Shown piece by piece: positions 18,941 through 64,000 of a stretch of 64,000 nucleotides of DNA. The position numbers and the translations under genes were made by a program. Positions within the stretch are counted from its first letter, which is position 1; each line of letters opens with the position of its first letter. The notes beneath the pieces are model-generated. The model was given only the letters and a program-made list of their open reading frames with translations, was not told the origin of the DNA and searched no databases. Origin of the DNA: Mustelus asterias (lineage: Eukaryota); NCBI RefSeq assembly GCF_964213995.1, contig NW_027590347.1, positions 1 through 64,000 of the forward strand, given 5' to 3'.

Positions 18941-19380
18941 CTGAAGAGGGGAACATTCTGAACAAATCAATTAAGTCGCTTTTGTATCTTCTTGCTTATA
19001 GAATAAAGAAACTAAATTAGCCTGTTAATCCCTGGCGCTATTCTGATTTATAACCTCCGCATTTACTCCAAAGACTTGGCGTTCTCTCGACTTCGTCGTC
19101 CCCAGGATTTGAACAGAGAACTCCAGCAATGATTTCCGCAGATTCCGCACCCTTTTCCCAAATGCATATCAACAGTAACGAAGTCAGTATCTAAAGAGCT
19201 CCAATGTAGATATCTGAGCAGCATTTGTATCTTGGTGGATGTCAACCCTGAATCAACTCAACAGGAAAATCCCAGCGTGCAATGAAATATACATTGGCCA
19301 ATTGACGGCCCCAAATTGAATCCCGAGCGCCACAAACACACGTGATGTTATAACTGAAAGCTGTATGGATGGAAGGCTTG

Positions 19381-19388
19381 TGATGTCA
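19381..19388 (+). promoter_or_regulatory. CRE/ATF-like TCR V promoter element
   Basis: TGATGTCA 129 bp upstream of the leader ATG; TGAGGTCA at the homologous site upstream of 55962 and 58707. Confidence 0.55.
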
Positions 19389-19509
19389 CAATAGACCCCC
19401 CACACACACACACACTCACTGCAATCAGCTGAACAGAGCCCAGGTTCCTCTCTCCTTCTCAGTCTCTGACTCATTCCATTCCCAGTCACTGAGGGGGATT
19501 CACTCAGAC

Positions 19510-20000
19510 ATGTTTCTGCTCATACTGGCGGCGCTCTTGCACAGTAAGTACTGGAAAACGTTCATCAAACCAGATAAACATATTGATGGCAACTTAATTA
19601 ACCATCTGAAATATCCCTGTAATGCATAGAATGGAGGTTCCACAAACTATCGCAGATACAAACACGTTTACATTAACTCTTGATATTTCATTCCTCTACC
19701 TTCGCAGGCGGACTGTGCGCAGATCCAGTAACTCAGTCACCGGTGACAATAACCGCATCAGAAGGGGGTTCGGTGCAGTTGGATTGTAACTATACAGACA
19801 GGAATATGGTCTACATGCAATGGTATCAGCAGAAACCAGCACAGCCACCGACATGGATTATTTCCAAAATATTAACAACGAAGGAAGATGAAGTTGCTGG
19901 ACGATATCTGGCGGCTGCCGACAGGTCTAAGCAGAATGGTTACCTCAATATCAGCGCCCTCAATGTGGAGGACAGGGCGGTCTATTACTGTGCAGTGAGG
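19510..20000 (+). CDS. TRAV: TCR alpha/delta-type V segment, family A (leader 19510-19543, V exon 19708-20000)
   Basis: MFLLILAALLH|gtaagt..cag|SGLCADPVTQSP...VQLDCNY...MQWYQQKP...DRAVYYCAVR; canonical Cys-Trp-Cys; RSS follows. Confidence 0.92.
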
Positions 20001-20040
20001 CACAGCGTTAGATTAAAGCTAAAACCCCCGTACAAAAACC
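20001..20040 (+). other. RSS CACAGCG-24-ACAAAAACC
   Basis: Directly abuts the V coding end; spacer one C longer than in paralogues. Confidence 0.9.
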
Positions 20041-20554
20041 TCAGCGAGTATTTGCAGCTCCACTGGGTTTGCTTCTGCGCGAATGCTTTGTTCCCGGGTT
20101 CACGAAGGCAGTCAGGTTTATTTACCGGGTATTTTGTCCTGATTGAGATCGGCAGAGAAGCGGTTTGGGAAATCGAGACGTTAATCCCCATGCCGCAATT
20201 TATGTAGTAAACAAAAAACGTCAGCTGAGGATGGACTCAGAAGTGGAGTTAGTTTGGCAGAAAATTACAGGCTGTTCTTTCAGCATCGTTAACTCTAATG
20301 AGCCCACGGACACCGACTCCTCGGCACTCGCTCCTGTAACGAAATGCAAAGCGGATCAAAATCTGTTGTCGTATTTAACAAATGAGATGTAGAATAACTG
20401 CCACAGAGACTTACCCAGCAACAGGACTATTGTAAATCCGGGACACAGAGACTTACCCAGCAACAGGACTGTTATTGTAAATCCGGGACACAGGCTCATC
20501 CAGCAACACGAAGATATCGAAACTCACAGCTGACACTGGTGTATTGTGTGGCAG

Positions 20555-21330
20555 TGAGCTGCCTTCTTGAAGCGTTGCGGTCCCGAGATGCAGGTACACC
20601 GATGGTGCTGTTAGTGTGGGAGTCTGGGGTGTTGACCCATTGACCGTGAAGGAACAGCGGTATATTGCAAAGTAAGGATATGGAATAAATTGGAAGGGAA
20701 CCTCTCGGTTGTGGTGTTCCCATGTGAATGCTGCCCTTGTCCTCCTACATGGCAGTGGCCGTGTGTTCGGATTGTGCTGCCTAAAAATCCTTGTTGAGTT
20801 GCTGCTGTATATCCGGAGGTGTTGCACTCAGCTGCCACTGTTCGTCGGTGGTGACAGGAATGGGTGTTTATTGAATGGGTCGCAATCACGCGGACTGCCC
20901 TGTCCTGTATCTTGTCGAGCTTAATGAGTGTTGTTGGAGCGACACTGATCCAGCAAGTAGGGAGCATTCCATTTACACCCCTGACTTGTATCTTGTAGAT
21001 GGTGGACAGGCTTTGGGGAGTCACGAGGCGAGTTACTCGCCACAGGATTCCTAACCTTTGATCTGCTCCGGTAGCCACGGTATTCATATTCCTCGGTCCA
21101 GTTCAGCTTTCGGTCAACTCCCAGGATGTTGTTGGGGGTGGGGGAGAGGAAGGGGGGGAGCAGGGGGGAGGATTCAGCGATGGTAATGCCTTTGAATATC
21201 AAGGAAAGTTCGACAGATCCTCTTCTTTTGGAGACGGTCATTGCCTGGAACCTGTGTGACCTGAACGTTGCTTCCACTTATCAGTCCAAACCTGAATATT
21301 GTCCAGGTCTTTCTGTATTTGTGCATAAAC
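20555..21330 (-). mobile_element. Non-LTR retrotransposon (CR1/L2 group) 3' ORF2 fragment; copies about 45580-46360 and 61240-61840
   Basis: Decayed RT C-terminal peptide (LSTIYKIQVRG..WISVAPTTLIKLDKIQDRAVRVI..HHRRTVAA). Confidence 0.75.
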
Positions 21331-21607
21331 CAAATGTCTGATTCGAGACAGCGGACTATCATGCTTAAATTAAAGAATGCGGGTGATTTCCTCACCATAA
21401 AGCCCACACTCACTGAGCGACTGTTTCTTCAATCGGATTAGTTACATCCTGACTCTCAATATGTCTGAGAAAAGCGAAGTCGCTGTCAGGAATTGCAAAT
21501 CCCCGGGCAACCCCGCTCACCTGCTCCATTTCCTGCTCTAGATCTGGCAGCTATTGCCTGCAGTCTGCTATTTGTAGGATTGCTGCAGCAACTGAAAACA
21601 GGCGTGA

Positions 21608-21646
21608 GGTTTTTGTACAGTGACGAGCGTCTTTCCTCTCAGTGTG
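21608..21646 (-). other. RSS CACACTG-23-ACAAAAACC
   Basis: Abuts the V coding end on the minus strand. Confidence 0.92.
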
Positions 21647-22056
21647 GGCTGTATCGCACAGTAATACAGAGCGGCATCCGCGCTCTCCGTGTTTCCAATA
21701 ACCAACTGGCCCCGTTTGCCCGCAGTGGAAAGTTCCAATTCGAACCGGTCTTTTCTCTCTTTGCCATTCGATGATCTGCTTATTATCCACTCCAGTCTCT
21801 GACCGGGTTTTTGTCTGTACCAATACATTCCATCAATGCTGGACATCTCATAACTGCAGTTTATCAGCGCCGAATCCCCGCTCTGGACTGTTCTCGCTGT
21901 GGGAGTTTGTGAAACTTGGTCCGAGCGACACCGATCTATAAAAAAACATTCATACAGTGAGACACTGGAGCAAAATTATTATAAATAAATAGCTCCAGAA
22001 ATAAATATCCTGCGCTTACAAGTTAACACCACCAGAATGATAAGGAACAGTTTCAT
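21647..22056 (-). CDS. TRAV: TCR alpha/delta-type V segment, family B (leader 22056-22020, V exon 21935-21647)
   Basis: MKLFLIILVVLT|gtaag..tag|YRCRSDQVSQTP...ALINCSY...WYRQKPG...DAALYYCAIQ. Confidence 0.92.
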
Positions 22057-22602
22057 TTGCACCGTGTGATATAATAACAATGTCAGTAAGAATACGGAGC
22101 ACAGCTCACAGCAGAAGAGCATGGATTGAATCAACGTCTTCAAAATATGCACCAGATAAAGTTTCAGACACTTGGGTTTTCTGCAATCTGATTGGCTGGA
22201 ATCAGACTCCGTGCTTCCGGTATCAGGATGTGGTTGTTGATCCGAAGCTGCTTCTCTTCCGGGTCACGTGTGAACAAATCAATTGTCCAAAAAACAGGAC
22301 ACTGCTTTACTGCAGTAACTGTCATTTATAAAAGTGGTTAAAGTTTAACTTCACCAATAAAGGCATGATTTTAAAATGAGGTTTGCCCTCATTTTAAAGT
22401 TATGTATGATAAATGCGTGATCAATAATATGTTGGAAATATTGTTTCTCGATTTACTTTTGCAAATATAATTGATTCCCCTTGTGTTTCAAGGGGACTTA
22501 AAGACCAGCCAAGCTGGTCTTCATATGATTTGGGTTCAATTACAAATCCACAATCCAGCTCACAGATCTGATTCAGTGAGAGGAGGTGAGAGTGCCTTTG
22601 CC

Positions 22603-22641
22603 GGTTTTTGTACGGGCTGACTGTGTCTCTGTAGCAGTGTG
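22603..22641 (-). other. RSS CACACTG-23-ACAAAAACC
   Basis: Abuts the V coding end. Confidence 0.92.
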
Positions 22642-23077
22642 GGGCTCAGCGCACAGTGATACACGGCAGAGTCAGAGACATGGACCCCGGTGATTGTTAA
22701 AGGAACTGTTCTCTTGTCTTTGTCCAATTCAGCCGAAAACCGGTCAGGGAAATCTGGAGACTTTTCCCCCTGTCCCTTGCCGTATTTCTTCAGTAAATAT
22801 CTCGGAGCGTCCCCGGGATGTTGAATGTACCAGAAGAGAGTCTCGCCAGTGTATTTTGCTGTGTAGTTGCAGTTCAATATTACCGTCTGCCCTTCCTGGA
22901 CCGTGAATTCGGGCAGGTCCTGGGAAACTGAATCTTGGCCACTGGTTCCTGTAACAACATATAGAATGTGTGAGAAATCTGAGTGAATATCACCCATGAA
23001 ACACACACTGAGGATTTGAGCTCAGACTCACCGGGCAGCATGACCATTATTATCAGTAAAGCACACAGGGAACACAT
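22642..23077 (-). CDS. TRAV: TCR alpha/delta-type V segment, family C (leader 23077-23032, V exon 22948-22642)
   Basis: MCSLCALLIIMVMLP|gtgagt..cag|GTSGQDSVSQ...VILNCNY...LFWYIQHPG...DSAVYHCALS. Confidence 0.92.
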
Positions 23078-27709: not shown

Positions 27710-28001
27710 AGAATCTGGATAGATACAACCACTATGGGCAGCGGTGGTCTCAGAAGCTCAAACACACACCGAGAGGATATCGCATTAACATCGGATCAAA
27801 CTGGCACCCAAATTATTCCAGCAATGACCGAGAAAATTAACTGCAGAATTCGATCAGTCCGGCAGATCAGTCATCAACACAGTCTACAAGTAAAACCGGG
27901 TGCTGTTCAGTTTCTGATCAGTTGTAACTTCCCACAAACACAGGGCTGGATATTCCTTTCAGCTCCGGGGGACATGTTTCTGACCCTCAGACCAGACCCA
28001 C

Positions 28002-28122
28002 TGACGTCACAGGACTACATGGTGACGCCGCACATGCCCGCTTTCTGACGTCACAGTGCCGGATACTCTCATGTCACAATGCCGGTTGTTCTGACGTCAC
28101 AATGCTGGATGGCCTGACGCAT
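28002..28122 (+). promoter_or_regulatory. Tandem CRE array upstream of the V at 28330
   Basis: Perfect TGACGTCA at 28002, 28046, 28092 with degenerate copies between and after (~22-23-bp period). Confidence 0.65.
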
Positions 28123-28329
28123 GCGCACTCTCCTCCCCCACACCCTATCAACGCTGACGCTCCCTCACTGCTTCACTTTGTGATCACAAGTCCCAGAGAC
28201 CCAGCTCTGGCCGCGAGAATATAACTGGTCTTGGGCTCAGTTTCATATCCAATAGCTTTGCTTTCCCAAGAGCTTCTCTTGGCCTGAGATCTGTCGACAA
28301 GTGATTTACAAGTGTCGGTAGGATTCGAC

Positions 28330-28848
28330 ATGAAGCCCAGCTTCATGTTAGTGATCATCTCCCTGGGTTTCTTACTCTTCCCTCAGTGTGAGTGTGATCG
28401 TTATTTCTGACAGGAATATTTCATGCATGAGTAATGCCATGCTCTGTTAAATAGTACTCTGTTTTGTTGCATTATCTTGTATTGTGTATTCAATTGTTCT
28501 TTATTGTGCTACACTGTATTGCGATATGATATATTAATTTTATCATATTGTTGCACATCTACATATCCTTCCCAGATGTCACTGGCGGCGAAGAGGTATT
28601 ACAGTCTCTGGAGTCCGTGGTGGTTACCCAGGGGTACCTGGCATCGTTGAACTGTTCCACTACAGCAGCTGGACGGGTCCTACAATGGTACAGACAATTC
28701 CCGGACCGAACTATGCAGCACCTGGTGAGCGGTACCAGCGACCAGGGCAGGATCAGGGCTCGGAACATTGTTGCAGAGAAACGCAGCGTTCTGAACGTTA
28801 GCGACACTCGGGTGACAGACACCGCCACCTATTTCTGTGCAATGGAGG
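28330..28848 (+). CDS. TRAV: TCR alpha/delta-type V segment, family D (leader 28330-28387, V exon 28576-28848)
   Basis: MKPSFMLVIISLGFLLFPQ|gtgagt..cag|YVTGGEEVLQS...ASLNCST...LQWYRQFP...DTATYFCAME; short CDR2. Confidence 0.9.
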
Positions 28849-28887
28849 CACAATGTTGTGAAAATCGATAGGAGTCGTACAAAAACC
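28849..28887 (+). other. RSS CACAATG-23-ACAAAAACC
   Basis: Abuts the V coding end. Confidence 0.92.
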
Positions 28888-39625: not shown

Positions 39626-40761
39626 AATACAATAATGTTCAGACTACAATAAATTGGCCGACTCCATCATGTCATGTTTGGTTTCAAAGCTTCCTTTCTA
39701 AAATCCTGTGTTTTCTTTTCTTACTGTCCCTGCTGCCACTCTGCCTTATCAATCAGACATCTGGCTCTGTGCAAACCCGGATAATGTCTCTCTATGCCCT
39801 GTTTGAGAGCCGATATCCACTCCATCTGACGAAGGAGCAGCGTTCCGAAAGCTAATGGCATTTGCTACCAAATAAACCTGTTGGACTTTAACCTGGAGTT
39901 GTTAAAACTCTTACTGTGTTTACCCCAGTCCAACGCCGGCATCTCCACATCATGACCAGAATAAGGCAGGGTCAGATTACCCAGGTCAGAGGGTTGATGC
40001 AGTTTGATGGACAAGTTGTCTCCATTCTGAACAATGGGGAACAAGCTCCTCCCACTCATTGTCAACATTGCCCCCTACAAAGATGGCGGCAGCGCCTGCG
40101 TCCTGTTGCACATTGCCCCCATCAAAGATGTCCGACGCAGATTCGCATTTCCACGGACAGAGTGGCAGCAGTCAGCCCAGGCCCAACACTACAAGTTGCG
40201 GCCCCATGTCGTACGAACAGAGGGACCGATACGTTCTTTTCCGGGGTGTGAGTTTGAACAACATGTAAAAGGGGAGTTAGATATTTGAAGACACCCTTTC
40301 CAAACCTCACCCTGTATATTTTGCTGCCGTGTCTCGGGGTGCTCTCACTGCATTTCCCTGTGTCCGCGGGGGTGCTGTGGGGTTGGCAGCTGGTGAACTG
40401 TCTGCAAGTGAATGGATTCACCCCGAGCTGGGTTCACTCAGTGTTCTGATAGGGCGAATGGTTTCCTAGTTAGACACGTGGGACGAGATTTGTAACCGGA
40501 AACATGGGGTCACTGATGGGGTTTATTTATTCCGGCTTCAATTCTCCATCTCTGATTCCAGTAGAATCGATGTCAGTGAATGTGGGCGGATAAAACCCGA
40601 GTCTCAGCTTCTTTCAGCAGCTCGACAGAGAGACGCCACAGTTGCAACTGGAGCGGGTTTTTGGCTCCTTGTTATTTCTTGTGAATATTATATACATATC
40701 CCAATTCTACATTGAACTCCCTGGACAATTGCTTGAGCAGGAATTTCATTTGATCTGAAAA

Positions 40762-41094
40762 ATGCTCCGAATTTACAGATTCTGTTTGCTGTTTTCCTCT
40801 CTGATCTGCACGGGAGTGACTGGAGCAGATGAGGTGACGCAGCTCCCTCGGTGGAAGGTTGTCAGCGAAGAGGAAACCATATCCATGAACTGCACCACGA
40901 CCACTGCGTTTAACAGCTTGTATTGGTACAGACAGTCCCCGAATCAGCCACCCCAGCATCTGGTGATGGCCACAAGAGAACCCGATCAAAGCGGGAGGAT
41001 CACTGCCTCAATCGGTGGAGGCTACAAATTCAGTGCCCTGACTGTGAGAGACGCCGGAGTTACAGACACCGCCACCTATCTCTGTGCTGTGAGC
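40762..41094 (+). CDS. TRAV: TCR alpha/delta-type V segment with leader and V in one exon (family D-related)
   Basis: MLRIYRFCLLFSSLICTGVTG-ADEVTQLP...ISMNCTT...LYWYRQSP...DTATYLCAVS without an intron; consensus RSS follows. Confidence 0.8.
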
Positions 41095-41133
41095 CACAGT
41101 GTGACAAACACAGGGAGGTCCCATACAAAAACC
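41095..41133 (+). other. RSS CACAGTG-23-ACAAAAACC (perfect consensus)
   Basis: Abuts the V coding end. Confidence 0.96.
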
Positions 41134-41482: not shown

Positions 41483-41778
41483 GATGGCCTAGTGGTATTA
41501 TCGCGAGGCGATTAATCCAGTAACTCAGTTAATGTTCAGGGGACCCGGAATAACAATTTAGAATCTACTGATGAAACTATTGTCGATTGTCTGAAAGCCC
41601 CTCTGATTCACTAATGTCCTTTCGGGAAGGAAATCTGCCATCCTGACCTGGTCTGGTCTACATGTGACTCCAGACCCACAGCAATGTGGTTGACTCTCAA
41701 CTGCCCTCCAAGGGCAACTAGGGATGGGCAATAAATGCTGGCCAGCCAGCGGCGCCTAAGTCCCACGAATAACTGAAA
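41483..41778 (+). mobile_element. tRNA-derived SINE of a second family (internally deleted)
   Basis: tggcctagtggta head; 3' ...actagggatgggcaataaatgctggcc tail. Confidence 0.65.
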
Positions 41779-44535
41779 TGAACGCTCATATTTACGCAGC
41801 TGAATTTTCTGAAACATACCCCCTAAAACCCGGGCACTGGAAACTGCCCTGTCGATAAATTTGCACTTTGCTCGTTATCCCAACATTGAAAGTTTCAGAA
41901 CTTCCGCCAGAGGGCGCACTGGTTACAGACTCCTCGCTGCTCTGAACTGAAAATATAAACAAATAACAGCAGCATTGTCAGCTGCCTTTGCTGCTGTCGC
42001 TCTGATCCACATTGACTGCCTTCTGTTATTGGACATGTTATTCTCTCGTCCGGGATTTGCAGCGCAGTGGGAGGGGCAACTTCTGCCCCAAAAGTGGGTG
42101 TTTCCGTCTGCAGAGTTACAGACACAACGTGCGTCATATGATACGGACTCCGTCTGAACCTGTTCATTATGTTGCTTAATATTGAGTATCTCCTTCTCAG
42201 GAGAACTCCCCCCCCCCACCCCCCCACACCCACCCACCACCCAACCCACCCGACTGCTGTAAAATAAATCAAATAATGCAACAATTTATGGACTGAATAT
42301 GATAAATGCGGGACACCAAATGTCCCCGTCTGGCGGGATTGTTCAGATTGGTGAATGAGTGCAATACTGTAACTAACAGACATACAGCTCAGTTCATGTA
42401 CAAGGAAAACGCTGTGTCTGTTTAACCTATAGCAAAACAAAAACGAGAGGAAATGAGAAAGAAAAGAAGTAATTATTATTTTAATGAATCAAAGGAGAGA
42501 AAGAACTCAGGGGTCAGATGTAAGAAGGAGAAGAAGCTGTCAATGGCATTAAACATATAAATAATCAAATATTTATTAACAACACAGATTTCAGAAAGCA
42601 AGGATACAAGTCTAACGTTGCACACATCATTGTTGCGAATACAGTTCGGAACACTTCGATCAGTTTAGTGATTCTTCGTTCGTTTCGTGAGAGCCTCAGA
42701 GACAGTGTGTGAGAGAGATTGGGAAAGATAGAGTTGGGATGAGAGTGCACAGTGCTGAGCGGGAGACTCTTCCTTCTTTCAGTGTTAACCTCACAGACAG
42801 TGTGTGAGACACTGGGAAAGGTGGAGTTGGGATAAGAAAGCACAGTGTTGAGGGGAGCGGCACTTGAGCAACTGGGGGCATCTTCATCCCCACTCCGGAC
42901 AGAGCAGAACCTCTGTTCAGAAGTGGTTGTCAGACTTCTACCCAATCAAGGCAGGTTTGGAAAAGGTTAAAAAGAAACAGAGTTAATCTGGCTGGAGATT
43001 AGAGAGAGTGCAGAGAAGGTTTATCAGGGTGTTGCCTGGTATGGAGGGTCTTAGCTCTGAGGAGAGATTGGGTAAACTGGGCTTGTTCTCCCTGGAAAGA
43101 CGGAGAATGAGGGGAGACCTAATAGAGGTGTACAAAATTATGAAGGGTATAGATAGGGTGAACAGTGGGAAGCTTTTTCCCAGGTCGGAGGTGATGATCA
43201 CGAGGGTTCACGGGCTCAAGGTGAGAGGGGCGAGGTATAACTCAGATATCAGAGGGATGTTCTTTACACAGAGAGTGGTGGGGGCCTGGAATGCGCTGCC
43301 AAGTAGACATGCTGGCATCGTTTAAGACTTATCTGGTTAGTCACATGAGCAGTCTGGGAATGGAGGGATACAAACGAATGGTCTAGTTGGACCAATGAGC
43401 GACTGGCTCTGCTCAGTCAGACAGTTCACCCTTCAATCTCCTCTGATTAAGGTTCCCAGAGAGTTTCTAAAGATTCACAACTCTGGCAACCATAATAATA
43501 TATCTCCTGAAGCAATATAAGTTTGCTATCGATGCTAATATAACATTTCTGTTTGGGCTTTTGCTCTTTTAGTTGCATTCTCTCAATATTGTTATTGGCC
43601 GTGGTTGTGAGTCTGGAATTCGCCCCGATACCGAACCCAACACGGTATCTCACTGCCCTCTGATGGGGGGTGACATGGAACTGCAAAGTGCAACTTTCGA
43701 CCACCTGTGAGTCTTCGGGACTCAAGTTTGTGTTCAACAATTTCCGGTCGTGAATTCTACCACGATCGTCTTTATGTCCTTTGTTCAAATTTTAGTCTGC
43801 ACCTGGGGTGGAGAATCTTTTTTGCTATGAGTCCACCTCCGCCAGACAAAGAGAACCTTTTTCCATATCTGGGTCATGGAGATTCTGTCACTCAGCCGAT
43901 GTCCTCAGCAGTCCAGACAGAAGGAGAAGCGGTGACTTACAATGTATCTGGAACACGACGTTTTACTCCCTGAAGAGGGGAACATTCTGAACAAATCAAT
44001 TAAGTCGCTTTTGTATCTTCTTGCTTATAGAATAAAGAAACTAAATTAGCCTGTTAATCCCTGGCGCTATTCTGATTTATAACCTCCGCATTTACTCCAA
44101 AGACTTGGCGTTCTCTCGACTTCGTCGTCCCCAGGATTTGAACAGAGAACTCCAGCAATGATTTCCGCAGATTCCGCACCCTTTTCCCAAATGCATATCA
44201 ACAGTAACGAAGTCAGTATCTAAAGAGCTCCAATGTAGATATCTGAGCAGCATTTGTATCTTGGTGGATGTCAACCCTGAATCAACTCAACAGGAAAATC
44301 CCAGCGTGCAATGAAATATACATTGGCCAATTGACGGCCCCAAATTGAAGCCCGAGCGCCACAAACACACGTGATGTTATAACTGAAAGCTGTATGGATG
44401 GAAGGCTTGTGATGTCACAATAGACCCCCCCACACACACACTCACTGCAATCAGCTGAACAGAGCCCAGGTTCCTCTCTCCTTCTCAGTCTCTGACTCAT
44501 TCCATTCCCATTCACTGAGGGGGATTCACTCAGAC

Positions 44536-45026
44536 ATGTTTCTGCTCATACTGGCGGCGCTCTTGCACAGTAAGTACTGGAAAACGTTCATCAAACCAGA
44601 TAAACATATTGATGGCAACTTAATTAACCATCTGAAATATCCCTGTAATGCACAGAATGGAGGTTCCACAAACTATCGCAGATACAAACACGTTTACATT
44701 AACTCTTGATATTTCATTCCTCTACCTTCGCAGGCGGACTGTGCGCAGATCCAGTAACTCAGTCACCGGTGACAATAACCGCATCAGAAGGGGGTTCGGT
44801 GCAGTTAGATTGTAACTATACAGACAAGGGTATGTACAGCATGCAATGGTATCAGCAGAAACCAGCACAGCCACCGACATGGATTATTTCCAAAATATTA
44901 ACAACGAAGGAAGATGAAGTTGCTGGACGATATCTGGCGGCTGCCGACAGGTCTAAGCAGAATGGTTACCTCAATATCAGCGCCCTCAATGTGGAGGACA
45001 GGGCGGTCTATTACTGTGCAGTGAGG
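44536..45026 (+). CDS. TRAV: TCR V segment, family A (leader 44536-44569, V exon 44734-45026); RSS CACAGCG-23-ACAAAAACC at 45027-45065
   Basis: Duplicate of 19510-20000 with a different CDR1 (DKGMYSM) and RSS spacer. Confidence 0.93.
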
Positions 45027-46674
45027 CACAGCGTTAGATTGCAGTTAAAACGCCTTACAAAAACCTCAGCGAGTATTTGCAGCTCCACTGGGTTTGCTTC
45101 TGCGCGAATGGTTTGTTCCCGGGTTCACGAAGGCAGTCAGGTTTATTTACCGGGTATTTTGTCCTGATTGAGATCGGCAGAGAAGCGGTTTGGGAAATCG
45201 AGACGTTAATCCCCATGCCGCAATTTATGTAGTAAACAAAAAACGTCAGCTGAGGATGGACTCAGAAGTGGAGTTAGTTTGGCAGAAAATTACAGGCTGT
45301 TCTTTCAGCATCGTTAACTCTAATGAGCCCACGGACACCGACTCCTCGGCACTCGCCCCTGTAACGAAATGCAAAGCGGATCAAAATCTGTCGTCGTATT
45401 TAACAAATGAGATGTAGAATAACTGCCACAGAGACTTACCCAGCAACAGGACTATTGTAAATCCGGGACACAGAGACTTACCCAGCAACAGGACTGTTAT
45501 TGTAAATCCGGGACACAGGCTCATCCAGCAACACGAAGATATCGAAACTCACAGCTGACACTGGTGTATTGTGTGGCAGTGAGCTGCCTTCTTGAAGCGT
45601 TGCGGTCCCGAGATGCAGGTACACCGATCGTGCTGTTAGTGTGGGAGTCTGGGGTGTTGACCCATTGACCGTGAAGGAACAGCGGTATATTGCAAAGTAA
45701 GGATATGGAATAAATTGGAAGGGAACCTCTAGGTTGTGGTGTTCCCATGTGAATGCTGCCCTTGTCCTCCTACATGGCAGTGGCCGTGTGTTCGGATTGT
45801 GCTGCCTAAAAATCCTTGTTGAGTTGCTGCTGTATATCCGGAGGTGTTGCACTCAGCTGCCACTGTTCGTCGGTGGTGACAGGAATGGGTGTTTATTGAA
45901 TGGGTCGCAATCACGCGGACTGCCCTGTCCTGTATCTTGTCGAGCTTAATGAGTGTTGTTGGAGCGACACTGATCCAGCAAGTAGGGAGCATTCCATTTA
46001 CACCCCTGACTTGTATCTTGGAGATGGTGGACAGGCTTTGGGGAGTCACGAGGCGAGTTACTCGCCACAGGATTCCTAACCTTTGATCTGCTCCGGTAGC
46101 CACGGTATTCATATTCCTCGGTCCAGTTCAGTTTTCGGTCAACTCCCAGGATGTTGTTGGGGGTGGGGGACAGGAAGGGGGGGGGGAGCAGAGGGGAGGA
46201 TTCAGCGATGGTAATGCCTTTGAATATCAAGGAAAGTTCGTCAGATCCTCTTCTTTTGGAGACGGTCATTGCCTGGAACCTGTGTGACCTGAACGTTGCT
46301 TCCACTTATCAGTCCAAACCTGAATATTGTCCAGGTCTTTCTGTATTTGTGCAGAGACCAAATGTCTGATTCGAGACAGTGTAGTATCATGTTTAAATTA
46401 AAGAATGCGGATTATTTCCTCACCATAAAGCCCACACTCACTGAGCGACTGTTTCTTCAATCGGATTAGTTACATCATGACTCTCAATATGTCTGAGAAA
46501 AGCGAAGTCACTGTCAGGAATTGCAAATCCCCGGGCAACCCCGCTCACCTGCTCCATTTCCTGCTCTAGTTCTGGCAGCTATTGCCTGCAGTCTGCTATT
46601 TGTAGGATTGCTGCAGCAACTGAAAACAGGCGTGAGGTTTTTGTACAGTGACGAGCGTCTTTCCTCTCAGTGTG

Positions 46675-47084
46675 GGCTCTATCGCACAGAAATACAGAGC
46701 GGCATCCGCGCTCTCCGTGTTTTCAATAACCAACTGGCCCCGTTTGCCCGCAGTGGAAAGTTCCAATTCGAACCGGTCTTTTCTCTCTTTGCCACTCGAT
46801 AATCTTCTTATTATCCACTCGAGTCTCTGACCGGGTTTTTGTCTGTACCAATGCATTCCATAAATGCTGGACATCTCATAACTGCAGTTTATCAGCGCCG
46901 AATCCCCGCTCTGGACTGTTCTCGCTGTGGGAGTTTGTGAAACTTGGTCCGAGCGACACCGATCTATAAAAAAACATTCATACAATGAGACACTGGAGCA
47001 AAATTATTATAAATAAATAGCTCCAGAAATAAATATCCTGCGCTTACAAGTTAACACCACCAGAATGATAAGGAACAGTTTCAT
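46675..47084 (-). CDS. TRAV: TCR V segment, family B (leader 47084-47048, V exon 46963-46675); RSS CACACTG-23-ACAAAAACC at 46636-46674
   Basis: Duplicate of 21647-22056; intact frame ending DAALYFCAIE. Confidence 0.93.
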
Positions 47085-47669
47085 TTGCACCGTGTGATAT
47101 AATAACAATGTCAGTAAGAATACGGAGCACAGCTCACAGCAGAAGACCATGGATTGAATCAACGTCTTCAACATATGCACCAGATAAAGTTTCAGACACT
47201 TGGGTTTTCTGCAATCTGATTGGCTGGAATCAGACTCCGTGCTTCCGGTATCAGGATGTGGTTGTTGATCCGAAGCTGCTTCTCTTCCGGGTCACGTGTG
47301 AACAAATCAATTGTCCAAAAAACAGGACACTGCTTTACTGCAGTAACTGTCATTTATAAAAGTGGTTAAAGTTTAACTTCACCAATAAAGGCATGATTTT
47401 AAAATGAGGTTTGCCCTCATTTTAAAGTTATGTATGATAAATGCGTGATCAATAATATGTTGGAAATATTGTTTCTCGATTTACTTTTGCAAATATAATT
47501 GATTCCCCTTGTGTTTCAAGGGGACTTAAAGACCAGCCAAGCTGGTCTTCATATGATTTGGGTTCAATTACAAATCCACAATCCAGCTCACAGATCTGAT
47601 TCAGTGAGAGGAGGTGAGAGTGCCTTTGCCGGTTTTTGTACGGGCTGACTGTGTCTCTGTAGCAGTGTG

Positions 47670-48105
47670 GGGCTCAGCGCACAGTGATACACGGCAGAGT
47701 CAGAGACATGGACCCCGGTGATTGTTAAAGGAACTGTTCTCTTGTCTTTGTCCAATTCAGCCGAAAACCGGTCAGGGAAATCTGGAGACTTTTCCCCCTG
47801 TCCCTTGCCGTATTTCTTCAGTAAATATCTCGGAGCTTCCCCGGGATGTTGAATGTACCAGAAGAGAGTCTCGCCAGTGTATTGTGCTGTGTAGTTGCAG
47901 TTCAATATTACCGTCTGTCCTTCCTGGACCGTGAATTCGGGCAGGTCCTGGAAAACTGAATCTTGGCCACTGGTTCCTGTAACAACATATAGAATGTGTG
48001 AGAAATCTGAGTGAATATAACCCATGAAACACACACTGAGGATTTGAGCTCAGACTCACCGGGCAGCATGACCATTATTATCAGTAAAGCACACAGGGAA
48101 CACAT
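47670..48105 (-). CDS. TRAV: TCR V segment, family C (leader 48105-48060, V exon 47976-47670); RSS CACACTG-23-ACAAAAACC at 47631-47669
   Basis: Duplicate of 22642-23077; intact frame. Confidence 0.93.
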
Positions 48106-55063: not shown

Positions 55064-55150
55064 GGGTTGTGTTCTGCATTCGATATGTCTCTGCAGCAGT
55101 GTGGGCTCCATGGCACAGACATACACGGCGCTGTCGGAAACCATTGCGTC
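55064..55150 (-). pseudogene. 3' relic of a family E V with RSS (CACACTG-24-ACACAACCC); copy at 57809-57895
   Basis: MVSDSAVYVCAMEP; downstream flank is the inverted homologue of 63340-63500. Confidence 0.85.
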
Positions 55151-55159
55151 CATGATGGT

Positions 55160-55640
55160 CTCTACAGCCAGCCAGGTCTTAAAGGTACAGATAATGTGGG
55201 TGGAGGGAACATTAAACACAGGTTCAAGAGATGTGTATTGTCTCCGGACAGAACAGCTAGTGAGATTCTGCAAGATCAGGAGGCAAGCTGTGGGGGTTAC
55301 TGATAATGTGACATAAATCCAACATCCCGGTTTAGGCCGTCCTCGTGTGTGCGGAACGTGGCTATCAGTTTCTGCTCAGCGAATCTGCGCTGTCGTGTGT
55401 CGTGAAGGCCGCCTTGGAGAATGCTTACCTGAAGATCCAAGGCTGAATGCCCTAAGACCTGGCTGGCTGTAGAGATTTGCATTCTAATTAGTATTCTGTA
55501 ACTTGATGTTGTGTCTCTGTGCACTGTTGGAGAACAGATTTTCACTCCATCTGATGAAGGGGCAGCGCTCCGAAAGCTTATGGTATTTGCTACCAAATAA
55601 ACCTGTTGGACTTTAACCTGGTGTTGTGAGACTTCTTATT
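55160..55640. mobile_element. Penelope-like element end (GIY-YIG C-terminus on minus strand plus inverted terminal repeat with hammerhead motif); copy about 57905-58386
   Basis: LQVSILQGGLHDTRQRRFAEQKLIATFRTHEDGLNRD; tctacagccagccaggtctta is inverted at ~55453-55473. Confidence 0.8.
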
Positions 55641-55961
55641 GTGGTGAGGAATCCAGTTAACAGCCAAATTCCAGCGTGCAGAACCCGCCATCAGAGGGCG
55701 CCACATTCTAGCCTGGGCGCCAGAAACTCACGTGATATTATCACTGAACCCTGTATGGATGGTAGGTTTGTGAGGTCACAATAGACAACCCCCCCCACCC
55801 CCCCACCCACCCACAGACACAGAAGCTCACACTGACCCACGCACACCGACACTCTCACAAACACACTCACTGCAATCAGTTGCACAGAGCCCGGGTTCCC
55901 TCTCTCCTTCTCAATCTCTGACTCACTCCGTTCCCATTCAGTGAGATAGATTCACTCAGAC

Positions 55962-56477
55962 ATGTTTCTGATCTTCCTGGCGGCGCTCTTGCACAGTAAG
56001 TACTGGGGTAACGTACATAAGCCAGATAAATGCATTAACACACATACATGGTAATATAATTAACCATCACAAATATCGATGTGAGGGGTGAATGGGGCGG
56101 GGGGGGGAGGTGGGGGCGGGTGCTGCAGAAACGATCGCAGATACAAACATTAACTCTTGATATTTCATTCCTCTACCTTCACAGGCGGACTGTGCGCGGA
56201 TCCAGTCGCACAGTCATCGCTGCCAATAACCGCATCAGAAGGGGATTCAGTGCAGTTGGGTTGTGAATATACAGACAAGGATATGTACAGCATGCAATGG
56301 TATCAGCAGAAACCGACACAACCCGTGACATGGATTATTACCAAAGCATTTACAGTGAAGGAAGATGAAGTTTCAGGACGATATCTGGCGGCTTCTGACG
56401 CGTCCAAACAGAACGGTTACCTCAATATAAGCGGCCTCAGTGTGGAGGACGGGGCGGTCTATTACTGTGCAGTGAGG
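55962..56477 (+). CDS. TRAV: TCR V segment, family A (leader 55962-55995, V exon 56185-56477); RSS CACAGCG-23-ACAAAAACC at 56478-56516
   Basis: MFLIFLAALLH|gtaagt..cag|SGLCADPVAQS...LGCEY...WYQQKP...DGAVYYCAVR. Confidence 0.93.
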
Positions 56478-58706
56478 CACAGCGTTAGATTAAAGCTAAA
56501 ACCCCGTACAAAAACCTCAGCGAGTATTTACAGCTCCATTAAGTTTCCTCCTGCGCGAATGGTTTGACCCGGGTTCACGAAGACAGTCATTTCTATTTAG
56601 GGTAGAGCCGAGGGGATGATTGGATATCACCTGAAGACTCTGTCAGGAATAAGCCTATTTGCAGATGGTGTTGTCTAATATTCTCTTGATTCTCGACCCA
56701 GTGATCTCAGAGTGACCCCCCCCCCCATCCTGGATCTACTGGTTACTGCTTTAACCAGGGTCTGGAGCAGGTCCAGGAGAACATCCTCCCACTCACCCAC
56801 CCCCTCCACACTTTACAGCCTTCTGGATTCAACATTCAGTCCAACAGTTTCAGAGAGTGAACTCTCAGCCCGTTCTGCTTCTTTTTCTTTGCTTGTTTCG
56901 TTTTTCTTTCTTTCAGTCGGCAGCCCCCCTGCTCCAGACACAGCTTCTGTTTCTCTGTTCCTTCTCTCGCTCCATCTCCATTCCCTTTGGCTCTGGGGGG
57001 GGGGGGGGGCTCACTTTTCTCTCATTCAATCTCTCCTGTCTTCCACCCTCTCACAGACCTTCCTTTAGTCCCTGTCCCACCCGCCCCTTTCTCCAAACCT
57101 GTTACATTTCTAACTTTCAAAGACTATTTCCTCGGGTGGATGGAGCTATTACAAGGGGGCATAACTATGGGGTTCATGGTGGGAGATACAGGAAGGATGT
57201 CAGAGGTAGGTTATTTGTGCAGAGAGTGGTTGGGGTGTGGAATGGACTGCCTGCAGTGATAGTGGAGTCAGACACTTTCGGAACATTTAAGCGGTTATTG
57301 GATAGGCACATGGAGCACACCAGGATGATAGGGAGTGGGATAGCTTGATCTTGGTTTCAGATAAAGCTCGGCACAACACCGTGGGCCGAAGGGCCTGTTC
57401 TGTGCTGTACTGTTCTATGTTCTATAATGCATCTCAGGTCGATTGAACAATCTTAAATCAATTAGGTTGATTTGCCATGCTAAATTAACCCTAGTGTAAG
57501 GGGGATTAGCAGGGTAAATATGTGGGGTTGCGGGAAGAGGGCCTGGGTTGGATTGTGGGCGGCGCAGACTCGATGGGCTGAATGGCCTCCGTCTGCACTG
57601 TCAGGATTCTACGATTCCATGATTCTGCAACTGTAAGTAACGGTCATCAATTAATATAACTGTGCAGCTGGACCACGCCAGTTGCTGTTTTTAAGTGCTG
57701 TTTTTGTGTTGCAATGCTCAGAATCTCCGTCACTCGCTCGGTGGAAACGGAATTCGCCGCGCGTGTGTGAGCGCACCCTGCTGGGCACGAACTGGAACTG
57801 CCAGTGTGGGGTTGTGTTCTGCATTCGATATGTCTCTGCAGCAGTGTGGGCTCCATGGCACAGACATACACGGCGCTGTCGGAAACCATTGCGTCCATGA
57901 TGGTCTCTACAGCCAGCCAGGTCTTAAAGGTACAGATAATGTGGGTGGAGGGAACATTAAACACAGGTTCAAGAGATGTGTATTGTCTCCGGACAGAACA
58001 GCTAGTGAGATTCTGCAAGATCAGGAGGCAAGCTGTGGGGGGTTACTGATAATGTGACATAAATCCAACATCCCGGTTTAGGCCGTCCTCGTGTGTGCGG
58101 AACGTGGCTATCAGTTTCTGCTCAGCGAATCTGCGCTGTCGTGTGTCGTGAAGGCCGCCTTGGAGAATGCTTACCTGAAGATCCAAGGCTGAATGCCCTA
58201 AGACCTGGCTGGCTGTAGAGATTTGCATTCTAATTAGTATTCTGTAACTTGATGTTGTGTCTCTGTGCACTGTTGGAGAACAGATTTTCACTCCATCTGA
58301 TGAAGGGGCAGCGCTCCGAAAGCTTATGGTATTTGCTACCAAATAAACCTGTTGGACTTTAACCTGGTGTTGTGAGACTTCTTATTGTGGTGAGGAATCC
58401 AGTTAACAGCCAAATTCCAGCGTGCAGAACCCGCCATCAGAGGGCGCCACATTCTAGCCTGGGCGCCAGAAACTCACGTGATATTATCACTGAACCCTGT
58501 ATGGATGGTAGGTTTGTGAGGTCACAATAGACAACCCCCCCACCCCCCCACCCACCCACAGACACAGAAGCTCACACTGACCCACGCACACCGACACTCT
58601 CACAAACACACTCACTGCAATCAGTTGCACAGAGCCCGGGTTCCCTCTCTCCTTCTCAATCTCTGACTCACTCCGTTCCCATTCAGTGAGATAGATTCAC
58701 TCAGAC

Positions 58707-59230
58707 ATGTTTCTGATCTTCCTGGCGGCGCTCTTGCACAGTAAGTACTGGGGTAACGTACATAAGCCAGATAAATGCATTAACACACATACATGGTAAT
58801 ATAATTAACCATCACAAATATCGATGTGAGGGGTGAATGGGGCGGGGGGGGGGGGGGGGGAGGTGGGGGCGGGTGCTGCAGAAACGATCGCAGATACAAA
58901 CATTAACTCTTGATATTTCATTCCTCTACCTTCACAGGCGGACTGTGCGCGGATCCAGTCGCACAGTCATCGCTGCCAATAACCGCATCAGAAGGGGATT
59001 CAGTGCAGTTGGGTTGTGAATATACAGACAAGGATATGTACAGCATGCAATGGTATCAGCAGAAACCGACACAACCCGTGACATGGATTATTACCAAAGC
59101 ATTAACAGTGAAGGATGATGAAGTTTCAGGACGATATCTGGCGGCTTCTGACGCGTCCAAACAGAACGGTTACCTCAACATAAGCGCCCTCAGTGTGGAG
59201 GACGGGGCGGTCTATTACTGTGCAGTGAGG
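58707..59230 (+). CDS. TRAV: TCR V segment, family A (leader 58707-58740, V exon 58938-59230); RSS CACAGCG-23-ACAAAAACC at 59231-59269
   Basis: Tandem duplicate of 55962-56477 with three amino-acid changes (F>L, E>D, G>A). Confidence 0.93.
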
Positions 59231-60374
59231 CACAGCGTTAGATTAAAGCTAAAACCCCGTACAAAAACCTCAGCGAGTATTTACAGCTCCATTAAGTTTC
59301 CTCCTGCGCGAATGGTTTGACCCGGGTTCACGAAGACAGTCATTTCTATTTAGGGTGGAGCCGACGGGATGATTGGATATCACCTGAAGACTCTGTCAGG
59401 AATAAGCCTATTTGCAGATGGTGTTGTCTAATATTCTCTTAATTCTCGATCCAGTGATCTCAGCTCTTCCTCCCATTGATTCTGTAGATGTGACATCAGA
59501 CTCGCCTCATCCACTGCTCTCAGCTTTATCTTGTTCGATATTCTGCAACTTTCGGAGACACAAGTCCCTGGAATCCAGGAGCAGCAGCAGCGATGCGGAT
59601 CTCCGTTCTCGCTGTTTTCTGGGTGACATTCATTGTTGGTAAGATGTTTAAAACTTGAAAAAGAGTAAAAAGAAGTTTCATTTATGGAGGAATAAGTTTG
59701 AAAAGCAGGCCTTTCATGTTAAACAAGTATTAGACCTGCCTTAGAGCACAAATGAATCTTTGTTTGTGGCTTTGGTCTTTTGGAGAACAGATTCTAAAAG
59801 CGCACAGCAAAGGCGATTTAAAGAGATGGTCCCAGGGTTGGAAGATGAGAGCTGTCAGAAAGCATGATAAAAATTGTGATTACTCTCTCTCTGGACGAGA
59901 AGACAACCAGGTAATCTGACTGATTTCTGGACAATGATGATCAAATCAATTTAAATAATAATAAATCAAATCAAAGAGATTTAGTGTGCTGGACGGAAAG
60001 AGGATGATTCCATTTGGGGAGAATTACATTTCTGTGTCCCATAAATCTAAGTGAAACAAAAAGATCAACTGGGAATTACGGAGAAACTTTTTTTGAAAGA
60101 GTTCTGTAGAAGTGACTCACATCGACACAATGAACTGTTGAGGAGAGGAGTAACGATGCATTTAAGGGCAAACCAGAGAAACCGCTGAGGTAGAAAGGGA
60201 TATTTGAGATGAGGCAGGAGGGAGGATTCTCCTAGGGATTGTGAAAGGGGACAGAGATCAGTTGGAGTGAATGTGTTAGAATTTAATACATTTTTTAATG
60301 TTGCACTGATTTTTCACCCTCGCTTCAAGTGAACTTTTAATCAATGACTTTTGTTTGTTAACCTTGTGTTCTGG

Positions 60375-60717
60375 ATCTGAACGATGGAGATTCTGTTACT
60401 CGGCTGGAATGTTCACTCACACGGACAGAGGGAGAAGATGTCACTTTAATCTGCACCTTTACCGACGATGCTTATTATTTATTCTGGTACCGTCAATACC
60501 CAGGCAGACAGCCCGAGTTTGCAGTCCGGAGAGGCAAGAACGGCGGTTTTGAATTAAAGGCGGATTTCGCTGGCACCCGATTTCCTGATTCAGTCCAGCA
60601 GTTAGACAAGTTGTACCGATTGGCTATGTCGATGCTGCTGCTGCCTGACACCGCGGTCTATTACTGTGCACAGAGTCTCACATTGATGAGAACGAGTGAA
60701 ATACTCGTACAAAAACT
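60375..60717 (+). pseudogene. Leaderless TCR alpha/delta V exon with open frame and RSS CACATTG-23-ACAAAAACT (60679-60717); probable pseudogene
   Basis: LNDGDSVTRLECSLTRTEGEDVTLICTF...LFWYRQYPGRQPEF...DTAVYYCAQS with no stops; acceptor reads ttctGG; upstream is LINE debris. Missed by the ORF track. Confidence 0.82.
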
Positions 60718-62801: not shown

Positions 62802-63299
62802 ATGGTGAACTATCTCACTCCGATCCTCATCATTCTCTCACTTCTCAGTAAGTATTTTCTTCCCAGTAAAACTACAAGCTCCTCCTGACTGCTGTAACCC
62901 AGATATTCTTGTTGATAAAACAATAGTGATGATGATAATTGTATCGTTTAATCTGAGGCTAACTCTGATTGTCATATTGCTGTTGTTTCTGTTAGAATGG
63001 AGCCACCAAGACGAAGTGGAACAATTGGATCCTGTAATAAAGGTTAAAGAGGAAAATGATGTCACACTAACCTGCACTTTGAAAACAAGCTATTCCAGCC
63101 CTAATGTGTACTGGTACAGTCAGCAGCCCGGGAAAGCTCCAGTGTACATGTTTCAGCTTATTGGAGAGAATGTACAAAGGAACACCGACCTCAATGATCG
63201 ATTTTCTTCCAAATTTGAGAAAAAGAACAAGACTAGCGAGCTGACGATCAGTAACACACTGATTTCCGACAGCGCCGGGTACTTCTGTGCCATGAAGCC
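62802..63299 (+). CDS. TRAV: TCR alpha/delta-type V segment, family E (leader 62802-62847, V exon 62996-63299); RSS CACACTG-24-GCAAAAACC at 63300-63339
   Basis: MVNYLTPILIILSLL|gtaagt..tag|KWSHQDEVEQ...VTLTCTL...VYWYSQQPG...DSAGYFCAMK; GC and CCAAT boxes upstream. Confidence 0.9.
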
Positions 63300-64000
63300 C
63301 ACACTGCTGCAGAGACAGAGCCAATGCCGTGCAAAAACCCCACACTGGCAGTTCCAGTTAGTGCCCAGCAGGGTGCGCGCGCACACACGCGGGTAATTCA
63401 GTTTCCACAGAGAGAGTGACAGAGATTCTTAACATTGCAACAAAAGACAACTCTCAAAAACAGCAACTGGTGTGGTCCAGTTGCAGTTACATTAGTTAAT
63501 GGTCGGAGCTTACATTTGCAATATCGATCTGAGATACTTCAACACATTTTTTTTCGTTTTCGATGCCTTTCTCTGCCTATTTGTTCCAGACAGTCCTTGT
63601 CTGCTGATTTATGGAAATTCTGCACATTTCCTTTCCCAGTCTTTAACGTAAACATTAAAGCTTTTTCTGTTCCCTTGTACATTAATTCAGAACCTCTCCA
63701 ATCCGGCTGCTCAGCTATTGGGTCCCATTTTCAATCCACGTCACAGATGAGGATTTCGCTTTGTACTGAATCACTTACTAACCCGATACTCCTGATGCAA
63801 GAATGCTGGTCCGCAGTGTGGAATGGACATTCAGCTGCCTCTCATATAGAGAGGCAAAGTTACAGAATTTCCAATTTGACATTGTTATTGAGTTCAGCTC
63901 CTTGCAGATAAATCCTAGCTGTCACCACACTGCCTATGGTAGCCCCACCCACAGTTTTCCTGTGCTGTTCGCACTCTGACCCGTCTCTCCTGTGCTGTTT

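Follow-up and report, generated by a model that had tools for sequence, protein, structure and literature searches.

The window, a 64,000-nucleotide stretch of Mustelus asterias DNA, contains a V segment that carries its leader and its V domain in a single exon. Judged by its sequence, this segment is a TCR alpha V gene segment, open and unrearranged. It belongs to a group of intronless copies that we regard as a functional single-exon V family, with a probability of about 0.85. The coordinates of the segment and of the features used for comparison are given in Table 1.

Table 1. Features of the single-exon V segment, its upstream region and two split-leader comparators (window coordinates)
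Feature	Position	Strand	Remarks
Promoter-like stretch (candidate)	40568-40596	+	GC box 40584-40589, GATAAA 40589-40594
Transcribed 5' UTR, at least this far upstream	40663-40761	+	putative RNA contigs of related copies cover 40663-40764
Leader, 21 codons (predicted signal peptide)	40762-40824	+	same exon as V
Position of L-PART1 or intron end in split-leader relatives	40762-40813	+	
L-PART2 equivalent	40814-40824	+	
TCR alpha-type V domain, open	40825-41094	+	Cys44, Trp55 and Cys108 are the invariant columns
23-spacer RSS	41095-41133	+	consensus heptamer 41095-41101, consensus nonamer 41125-41133
Nearest split-leader relative in the window	28330-28887	+	58-nt L1, 188-nt phase-1 intron, V exon, 23-RSS
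Neighbouring split-leader V, splicing control	44536-45065	+	L1 44536-44569, V exon from 44734

Leader and V domain in one open frame

A single open frame of 111 codons runs from the ATG at 40762 to 41094, encoding a 21-residue leader and then the V domain, and leads into a perfect 23-RSS, as a first-pass annotation of this DNA had described. The V domain scores 43.9 bits against the Pfam V-set model (cut-off 26), its PDB matches are mostly TCR alpha chains and its top match in the Atlas is TRAV41 (0.97). The segment thus shows the V-set fold, first cysteine, tryptophan, second cysteine, open frame and 23-RSS by which TRAV and TRDV genes are recognised; the split leader with a phase-1 intron is absent, and the acceptor is missing in all 39 family copies studied.

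The motif CACAGTG-23-ACAAAAACC at 41095-41133 has no second exact match in the window and none in 100 shuffles. Among the 20 RSS-like sites listed in the window it is the only one without a mismatch in heptamer and nonamer, while eight other RSSs are one heptamer base off and otherwise perfect. The earlier description of this RSS as the best one holds for the window as the sole exact match, but it does not set the segment apart, given that 13 of the 39 family copies carry the same perfect RSS. In the window copy and in most family copies the RSS directly follows V.

Translation from the ATG at 40762 would yield a basic N region, a hydrophobic core and an end of small residues. Signal-peptide cleavage is placed by the -3/-1 rule, and the leader is predicted to be cleaved after Gly21. 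The best nine-residue hydropathy is 2.49 in the window leader and 2.49-3.24 in eight family representatives, compared with 2.57-3.16 in ten spliced leaders of the split-leader sister family described below. Between the subfamilies, leader and V have the same pN/pS of 0.78, a weak sign of constraint that is equal in both parts. In V(D)J recombination RAG pairs a 23-RSS with a 12-RSS; here it would join the 23-RSS to a 12-RSS J-alpha, and the transcript would need only J-to-C splicing. The window copy likely works as an ordinary V segment.

Split-leader V segments in the window

The window's ten remaining intact V segments all show a split leader with a phase-1 intron, which bears out the first-pass annotation; six were computed (L1 of 34-58 nt, introns of 83-189 nt) and four are near-duplicates that were read by eye. 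The closest of them represents a sister family that also includes nine copies from elsewhere in the genome (L040-L048). Sister and intronless families are both V-set segments of TCR alpha type with a 23-RSS, are 40-52% identical and end their leaders at an equal position relative to the first cysteine. Only the sister family has a 58-nt L1, a phase-1 intron of 171-189 nt and upstream CRE repeats.

Two further segments on the forward strand show related sequence states. The V at 62851-63299 (RSS at 63300) has an intron end that is open for 49 codons and includes a strongly hydrophobic stretch; two Met codons lie in frame 21-22 codons ahead of the acceptor, and the intron end may be a second leader that needs no splicing. 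At 60350-60717 (RSS at 60679) a V-like frame has GG at the acceptor position, a stop just upstream and no in-frame ATG, and is likelier to be a true splice-dead pseudogene. The window also contains duplicated multi-V blocks (19250-22700 and 44300-47700; 55100-56500 and 57800-59270), whose V segments are near-identical and alternate in orientation.

An intronless V family in the same genome

A search of the genome with the window V returned 1460 candidates, of which 150 were scored, giving 152 matches. Of the 150 rows listed, at least 68 give an intron-free alignment that begins at residue 1 or 2, at 58-100% identity; they sit on many contigs, and some are possibly haplotype duplicates (e.g. 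L008 and L009). Seven further rows begin at residue 32, and L039, the one that was inspected, proved to be an intronless copy with a frameshift. From the 68 full-length intronless rows, 39 were studied in detail. An open frame with both cysteines is found in 30 of these, while the other nine are broken. The copies fall into four subfamilies that are about 60% alike and have leaders of equal length, except that one subfamily starts two codons earlier.

The first-pass annotation had pointed to a GG where relatives have the AG of the splice acceptor and had proposed a comparison across orthologues. The GG is present, at 40812-40813 rather than 40811-40812. At the equivalent position AG occurs in none of the 39 copies, which instead read CGG (21), CTG (12), CCG (3), ATG (1), GGA (1) or CGA (1). 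Hence, the GG is neither a recent change nor a read error.

With 1460 first-look candidates from one V query, the TCR alpha/delta V repertoire is very large. V segments lie in both orientations, and haplotype duplication is possible. Family matches are spread over 7-19 Mb of contig C71, where a tandem run of about 13 copies, spaced by about 2.5 kb, occupies C71:19.36-19.40 Mb. Family or V matches are also present on C232, C315, C546, C1506 and other contigs. In the subfamily of L031, L032 and L034 the ATG lies two codons further upstream. About 330 nt before the leader, these copies are directly preceded by a truncated foreign V gene, made up of a leader donor, an intron and the first 25 V codons, followed by a stop.

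Putative transcripts and V-J joining of related copies

Expression was assessed in four runs of putative RNA from one study (X1-X4), of which X1/X2 and X3/X4 look like duplicates; no listed run is on record as RNA, and the organism label of X1-X4 differs from that of the DNA. Contigs of X1 and X3 cover 40663-41094, with no depth from 41114 onward. Individual contigs bridge the leader-V junction over 40762-40951, with 52 letters to its left and no joint or indel listed. At about 5-12% divergence from the window copy, these contigs represent related copies; a near-identical transcript of the window copy is not among them. Contigs of X5, from a second study, match only 40922-41087, at 80% and outside the leader.

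A neighbouring V with a split leader (at 45027) serves as a control for splicing. In X2-X4, one contig of equal depth covers both its leader exon and its V exon; the first piece ends at the donor at 44569, and 102 letters of the record precede the V piece. As judged from these piece ends, and with repeats at 41544-41804 and 42849-43631, the control appears spliced, and X2-X4 thus behave as spliced RNA.

In one X3 contig the match to the window ends at 41094 and an in-frame J-like end follows, with the junction CAVSANNKLVFGSG. The join is seen on this one contig, the leader lies on different short contigs, and no C-alpha sequence was seen. The J-like end has 2 mismatches in 23 to a genomic J on C546, which is part of a tandem array; the RSSs there have 12-nt spacers, and FGXG and the donor are 34 nt apart. 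A distance of 34 nt is the criterion for J-alpha in the accessible text of PMC10322711. Rearrangement to J-alpha is thus found at the level of the family, through the in-frame V-J contig of a related copy. The tandem J-alpha array (L051, G000:C546:195754-198776) lies about 140-160 kb from sister-family V segments on the same contig.

These data bear on the proposal, raised in the first-pass annotation, that the segment is a splice-dead pseudogene, and likewise on a sequencing error in which AG was read as GG. At the level of the family we reject a pseudogene, in view of the dozens of open copies across four subfamilies, the unspliced putative transcripts and the in-frame V-J join. Applied to the window copy, either explanation would suit the share of broken family members (9/39) and the missing near-identical transcript, but AG occurs in 0/39 copies, the window frame, cysteines and RSS are intact, and relatives are transcribed unspliced and joined to J in frame. 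We therefore regard both as very improbable.

Upstream region

The contigs place the transcript start at 40663 or further upstream, this position being a minimum extent because the true start lies beyond what contigs can show. The ATG at 40762 was described earlier as the first one after an upstream cluster of CRE, GC-box and TATA-like motifs, and there is indeed no ATG between 40596 and 40762. The cluster itself stands in part. The GC box is retained in 25/30 and GATAAA in 29/30 copies of the closest subfamily, but a consensus CRE (TGA[CT]GTCA or TGAC[AG]TCA) is found within 500 nt upstream in 0/39 family copies. The same patterns occur upstream of the sister family in 10/10 copies, with 1-4 per copy. 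In the sister family (L040-L048 and about 28000-28330 of the window) these CRE sites are arranged in tandem.

Neither a GT[AG]AG donor (absent in 25/39 copies, scattered in 14) nor a vestigial L1 exon is conserved upstream of the family, and the subfamilies gradually cease to resemble each other beyond about 250 nt. We considered a GTGAGT-like site, 238 nt before the junction, as a vestigial donor and rejected it; the site is present in only 6/30 close copies, and the frame preceding it is not hydrophobic. Likewise, the AG at 40777-40778 was discarded as an alternative acceptor, as it is lost in other subfamilies and contigs read straight through it.

Among the close copies L001-L030, 27 of 30 carry an in-frame ATG 12 nt upstream of the main ATG, with a stop two codons later in 19 and read-through in 8. 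This upstream ATG is missing in the window copy and present in the expressed copies of run X1.

Protein relatives and age of the layout

A single-sequence protein search of a 90% collection gave no match. In an alignment-based search, only two proteins, P0003 and P0004, match near full length, together with one unrelated long protein. These protein searches returned no full-length TCR-alpha cDNA protein with the same leader, and no DNA of P0003 relatives turned up in a metagenome scan. P0003 is a JGI/IMG record on a 1001-base contig (61% identity) and, by the source of the record, likely an unspliced gene call. P0004, the closest named protein, is GCC41311.1 of the bamboo shark Chiloscyllium punctatum (59% identity over 110 residues), an unannotated 'hypothetical protein' that was compared here as protein alone. 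Both align 1-110 to 1-110, with leaders of equal length.

A tree was built from 35 V domains. Its 13 intronless rows group with P0003 and P0004 in a single branch (96/92), inside which P0004 is nested. The ten rows of the split-leader sister family form a separate branch (97/98), and both branches join two further chondrichthyan proteins at a node (94/90) that is unresolved. By parsimony, the position of P0004 inside the intronless clade places the one-exon state before the split from the bamboo shark lineage. The one-exon layout hence likely arose once, long ago.

Origin of the leader

Loss of the leader intron is the origin that we favour, at roughly even odds. The distance from ATG to junction, 52 or 58 nt, fits L1 exons (34-58 nt; 58 nt in the sister family), and pairwise global alignments lean to the UTR plus L1 of the sister family (mean Z 2.0 vs 0.4). 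Because the RSS is kept, the segment cannot be a copy made from a rearranged mRNA, an argument that was already made in the first-pass annotation and is sound. A retrocopy of a germline V transcript would be marked by a poly-A tail and a target-site duplication; no shared poly-A run was found within 230 nt from the RSS in nine copies read by eye, and such marks would have vanished after an old event.

The first-pass annotation had instead put forward an exapted intron, in which the splice acceptor and the former L1 disappeared and the signal peptide came from a hydrophobic read-through that starts at an in-frame ATG inside the intron. The evidence named for it, a polypyrimidine look of the leader DNA and cGG in place of cAG, fails to discriminate. 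The fraction of pyrimidines over the last 25 nt is 0.70 for the intronless leaders, 0.81 for the L1 ends of the sister family and 0.68 for its intron ends, so that true L1 ends exceed intron ends; hydrophobic codons account for the pyrimidine-rich look. CAG is also common at exon ends that precede a donor. Exaptation stands as a tentative alternative with less weight than intron loss.

Further observations suit exaptation. In ten of 15 split-leader genes, including 8/10 sister copies, the intron end is open and hydrophobic and carries a Met in frame, so that raw material is at hand. Moreover, the CRE-rich upstream region of the sister family is missing (0/39 vs 10/10), as expected if promoter and L1 were replaced. 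However, the Met of the sister intron lies at -11 codons and the intronless ATG at -17, a vestigial donor or L1 is not conserved upstream, and the UTR alone leans to the UTR of the sister family in pairwise alignment (mean Z 1.66 vs 0.38).

Direct homology tests point in both directions. Over 34 nt in register, identity to the sister intron end is 0.412 (nominal p 0.029), which would favour exaptation, but identity to the sister L1 end is equal (0.418, nominal p 0.098), and the intron end of a distant family does equally well (p 0.025-0.044), so the intron-end signal is unspecific. An HMM of the intronless 5' region gives no clear match to the sister exon or intron. Its sole clear excess among 30 targets (0/100 shuffles) is at the intron end of a distant family, which might be counted for exaptation but is out of register. 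Profile-profile local alignment gives Z 1.5 for the exon and 0.6 for the intron, with unrelated targets reaching up to 3.2. The four tests, pairwise alignments included, disagree or tie on intron loss versus recruitment of an intron end, and we take none of them as proof.

The HMM and profile-profile tests, which find no significant homology to the sister L1 or intron, would also be compatible with a replacement of promoter, UTR and leader, by which recombination or imprecise deletion joined a leader-like sequence of unrelated origin directly to the V exon. The loss of upstream similarity between subfamilies beyond about 250 nt would suit such an event, and the position of L031, L032 and L034 directly behind a truncated foreign V gene indicates that fusions occur in the locus. 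Against it, the length and phase of the leader suit a normal L1, and V identity between family and sister just past the junction is only 0.45-0.48, so that lost leader homology is expected from age alone. Such a replacement seems improbable to us, and loss of the leader intron remains our preferred origin.

Comparison with known systems

PMC12227049 regards a split leader as the canonical form in all antigen receptor genes. In the literature searched, which consisted of main texts outside subscription journals, we found no report of single-exon V genes in sharks. Likewise, the accessible parts of papers on nurse shark TCR-alpha (PMC5931798), duck (PMC5278385) and newt (PMC12698447) yielded no report of a single-exon V. 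Shark locus annotations in supplements or subscription journals might already record the family. V-gene finders that insist on a splice acceptor would overlook or wrongly label this entire family when shark genomes are annotated.

Opossum TRMVj is a V gene without a leader intron for which retrotransposition or intron deletion has been proposed (PMC2275272; PMC6170632, both as far as accessible). Opossum TRMVj and the shark family are hence both TCR V genes without a leader intron. As described there, however, TRMVj is already fused with D and J in germline DNA, whereas the shark family keeps its RSS and rearranges somatically.

The chicken offers a closer parallel. Leader and V lie in one exon in 45/48 TRAV1 genes and in most TRGV1 genes, a case that the available text of the report terms unique (PMC10972964). 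As far as that text goes, chicken TRAV1 (V-alpha-1) and the shark family are alike in having an unrearranged V with an RSS, a leader in the V exon and an expansion beside split-leader families. The traits that mark the chicken kind, i.e., ATG, leader and V in one frame, a retained RSS and multiple copies, are all present in the shark. Chicken TRAV1 belongs to the bird lineage and the family described here to sharks. The nearest relatives that we found are split-leader shark V genes, from which we infer that the shark family probably originated independently of chicken TRAV1.

Such a second, apparently independent case shows the leader intron to be dispensable for TCR V function and to have been lost or replaced on more than one occasion. 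If it is true that the leader is a recruited intron end, the family would be a clear case of a signal peptide made from intron sequence. A still more speculative view, which we consider unlikely on balance, combines an old, expressed V family with an intron-end signal peptide and sees V intron ends as a standing source of new signal peptides that might explain chicken TRAV1, too. The one-exon layout of leader and V is known from the chicken, and the shark family represents a second case that is apparently independent and old.
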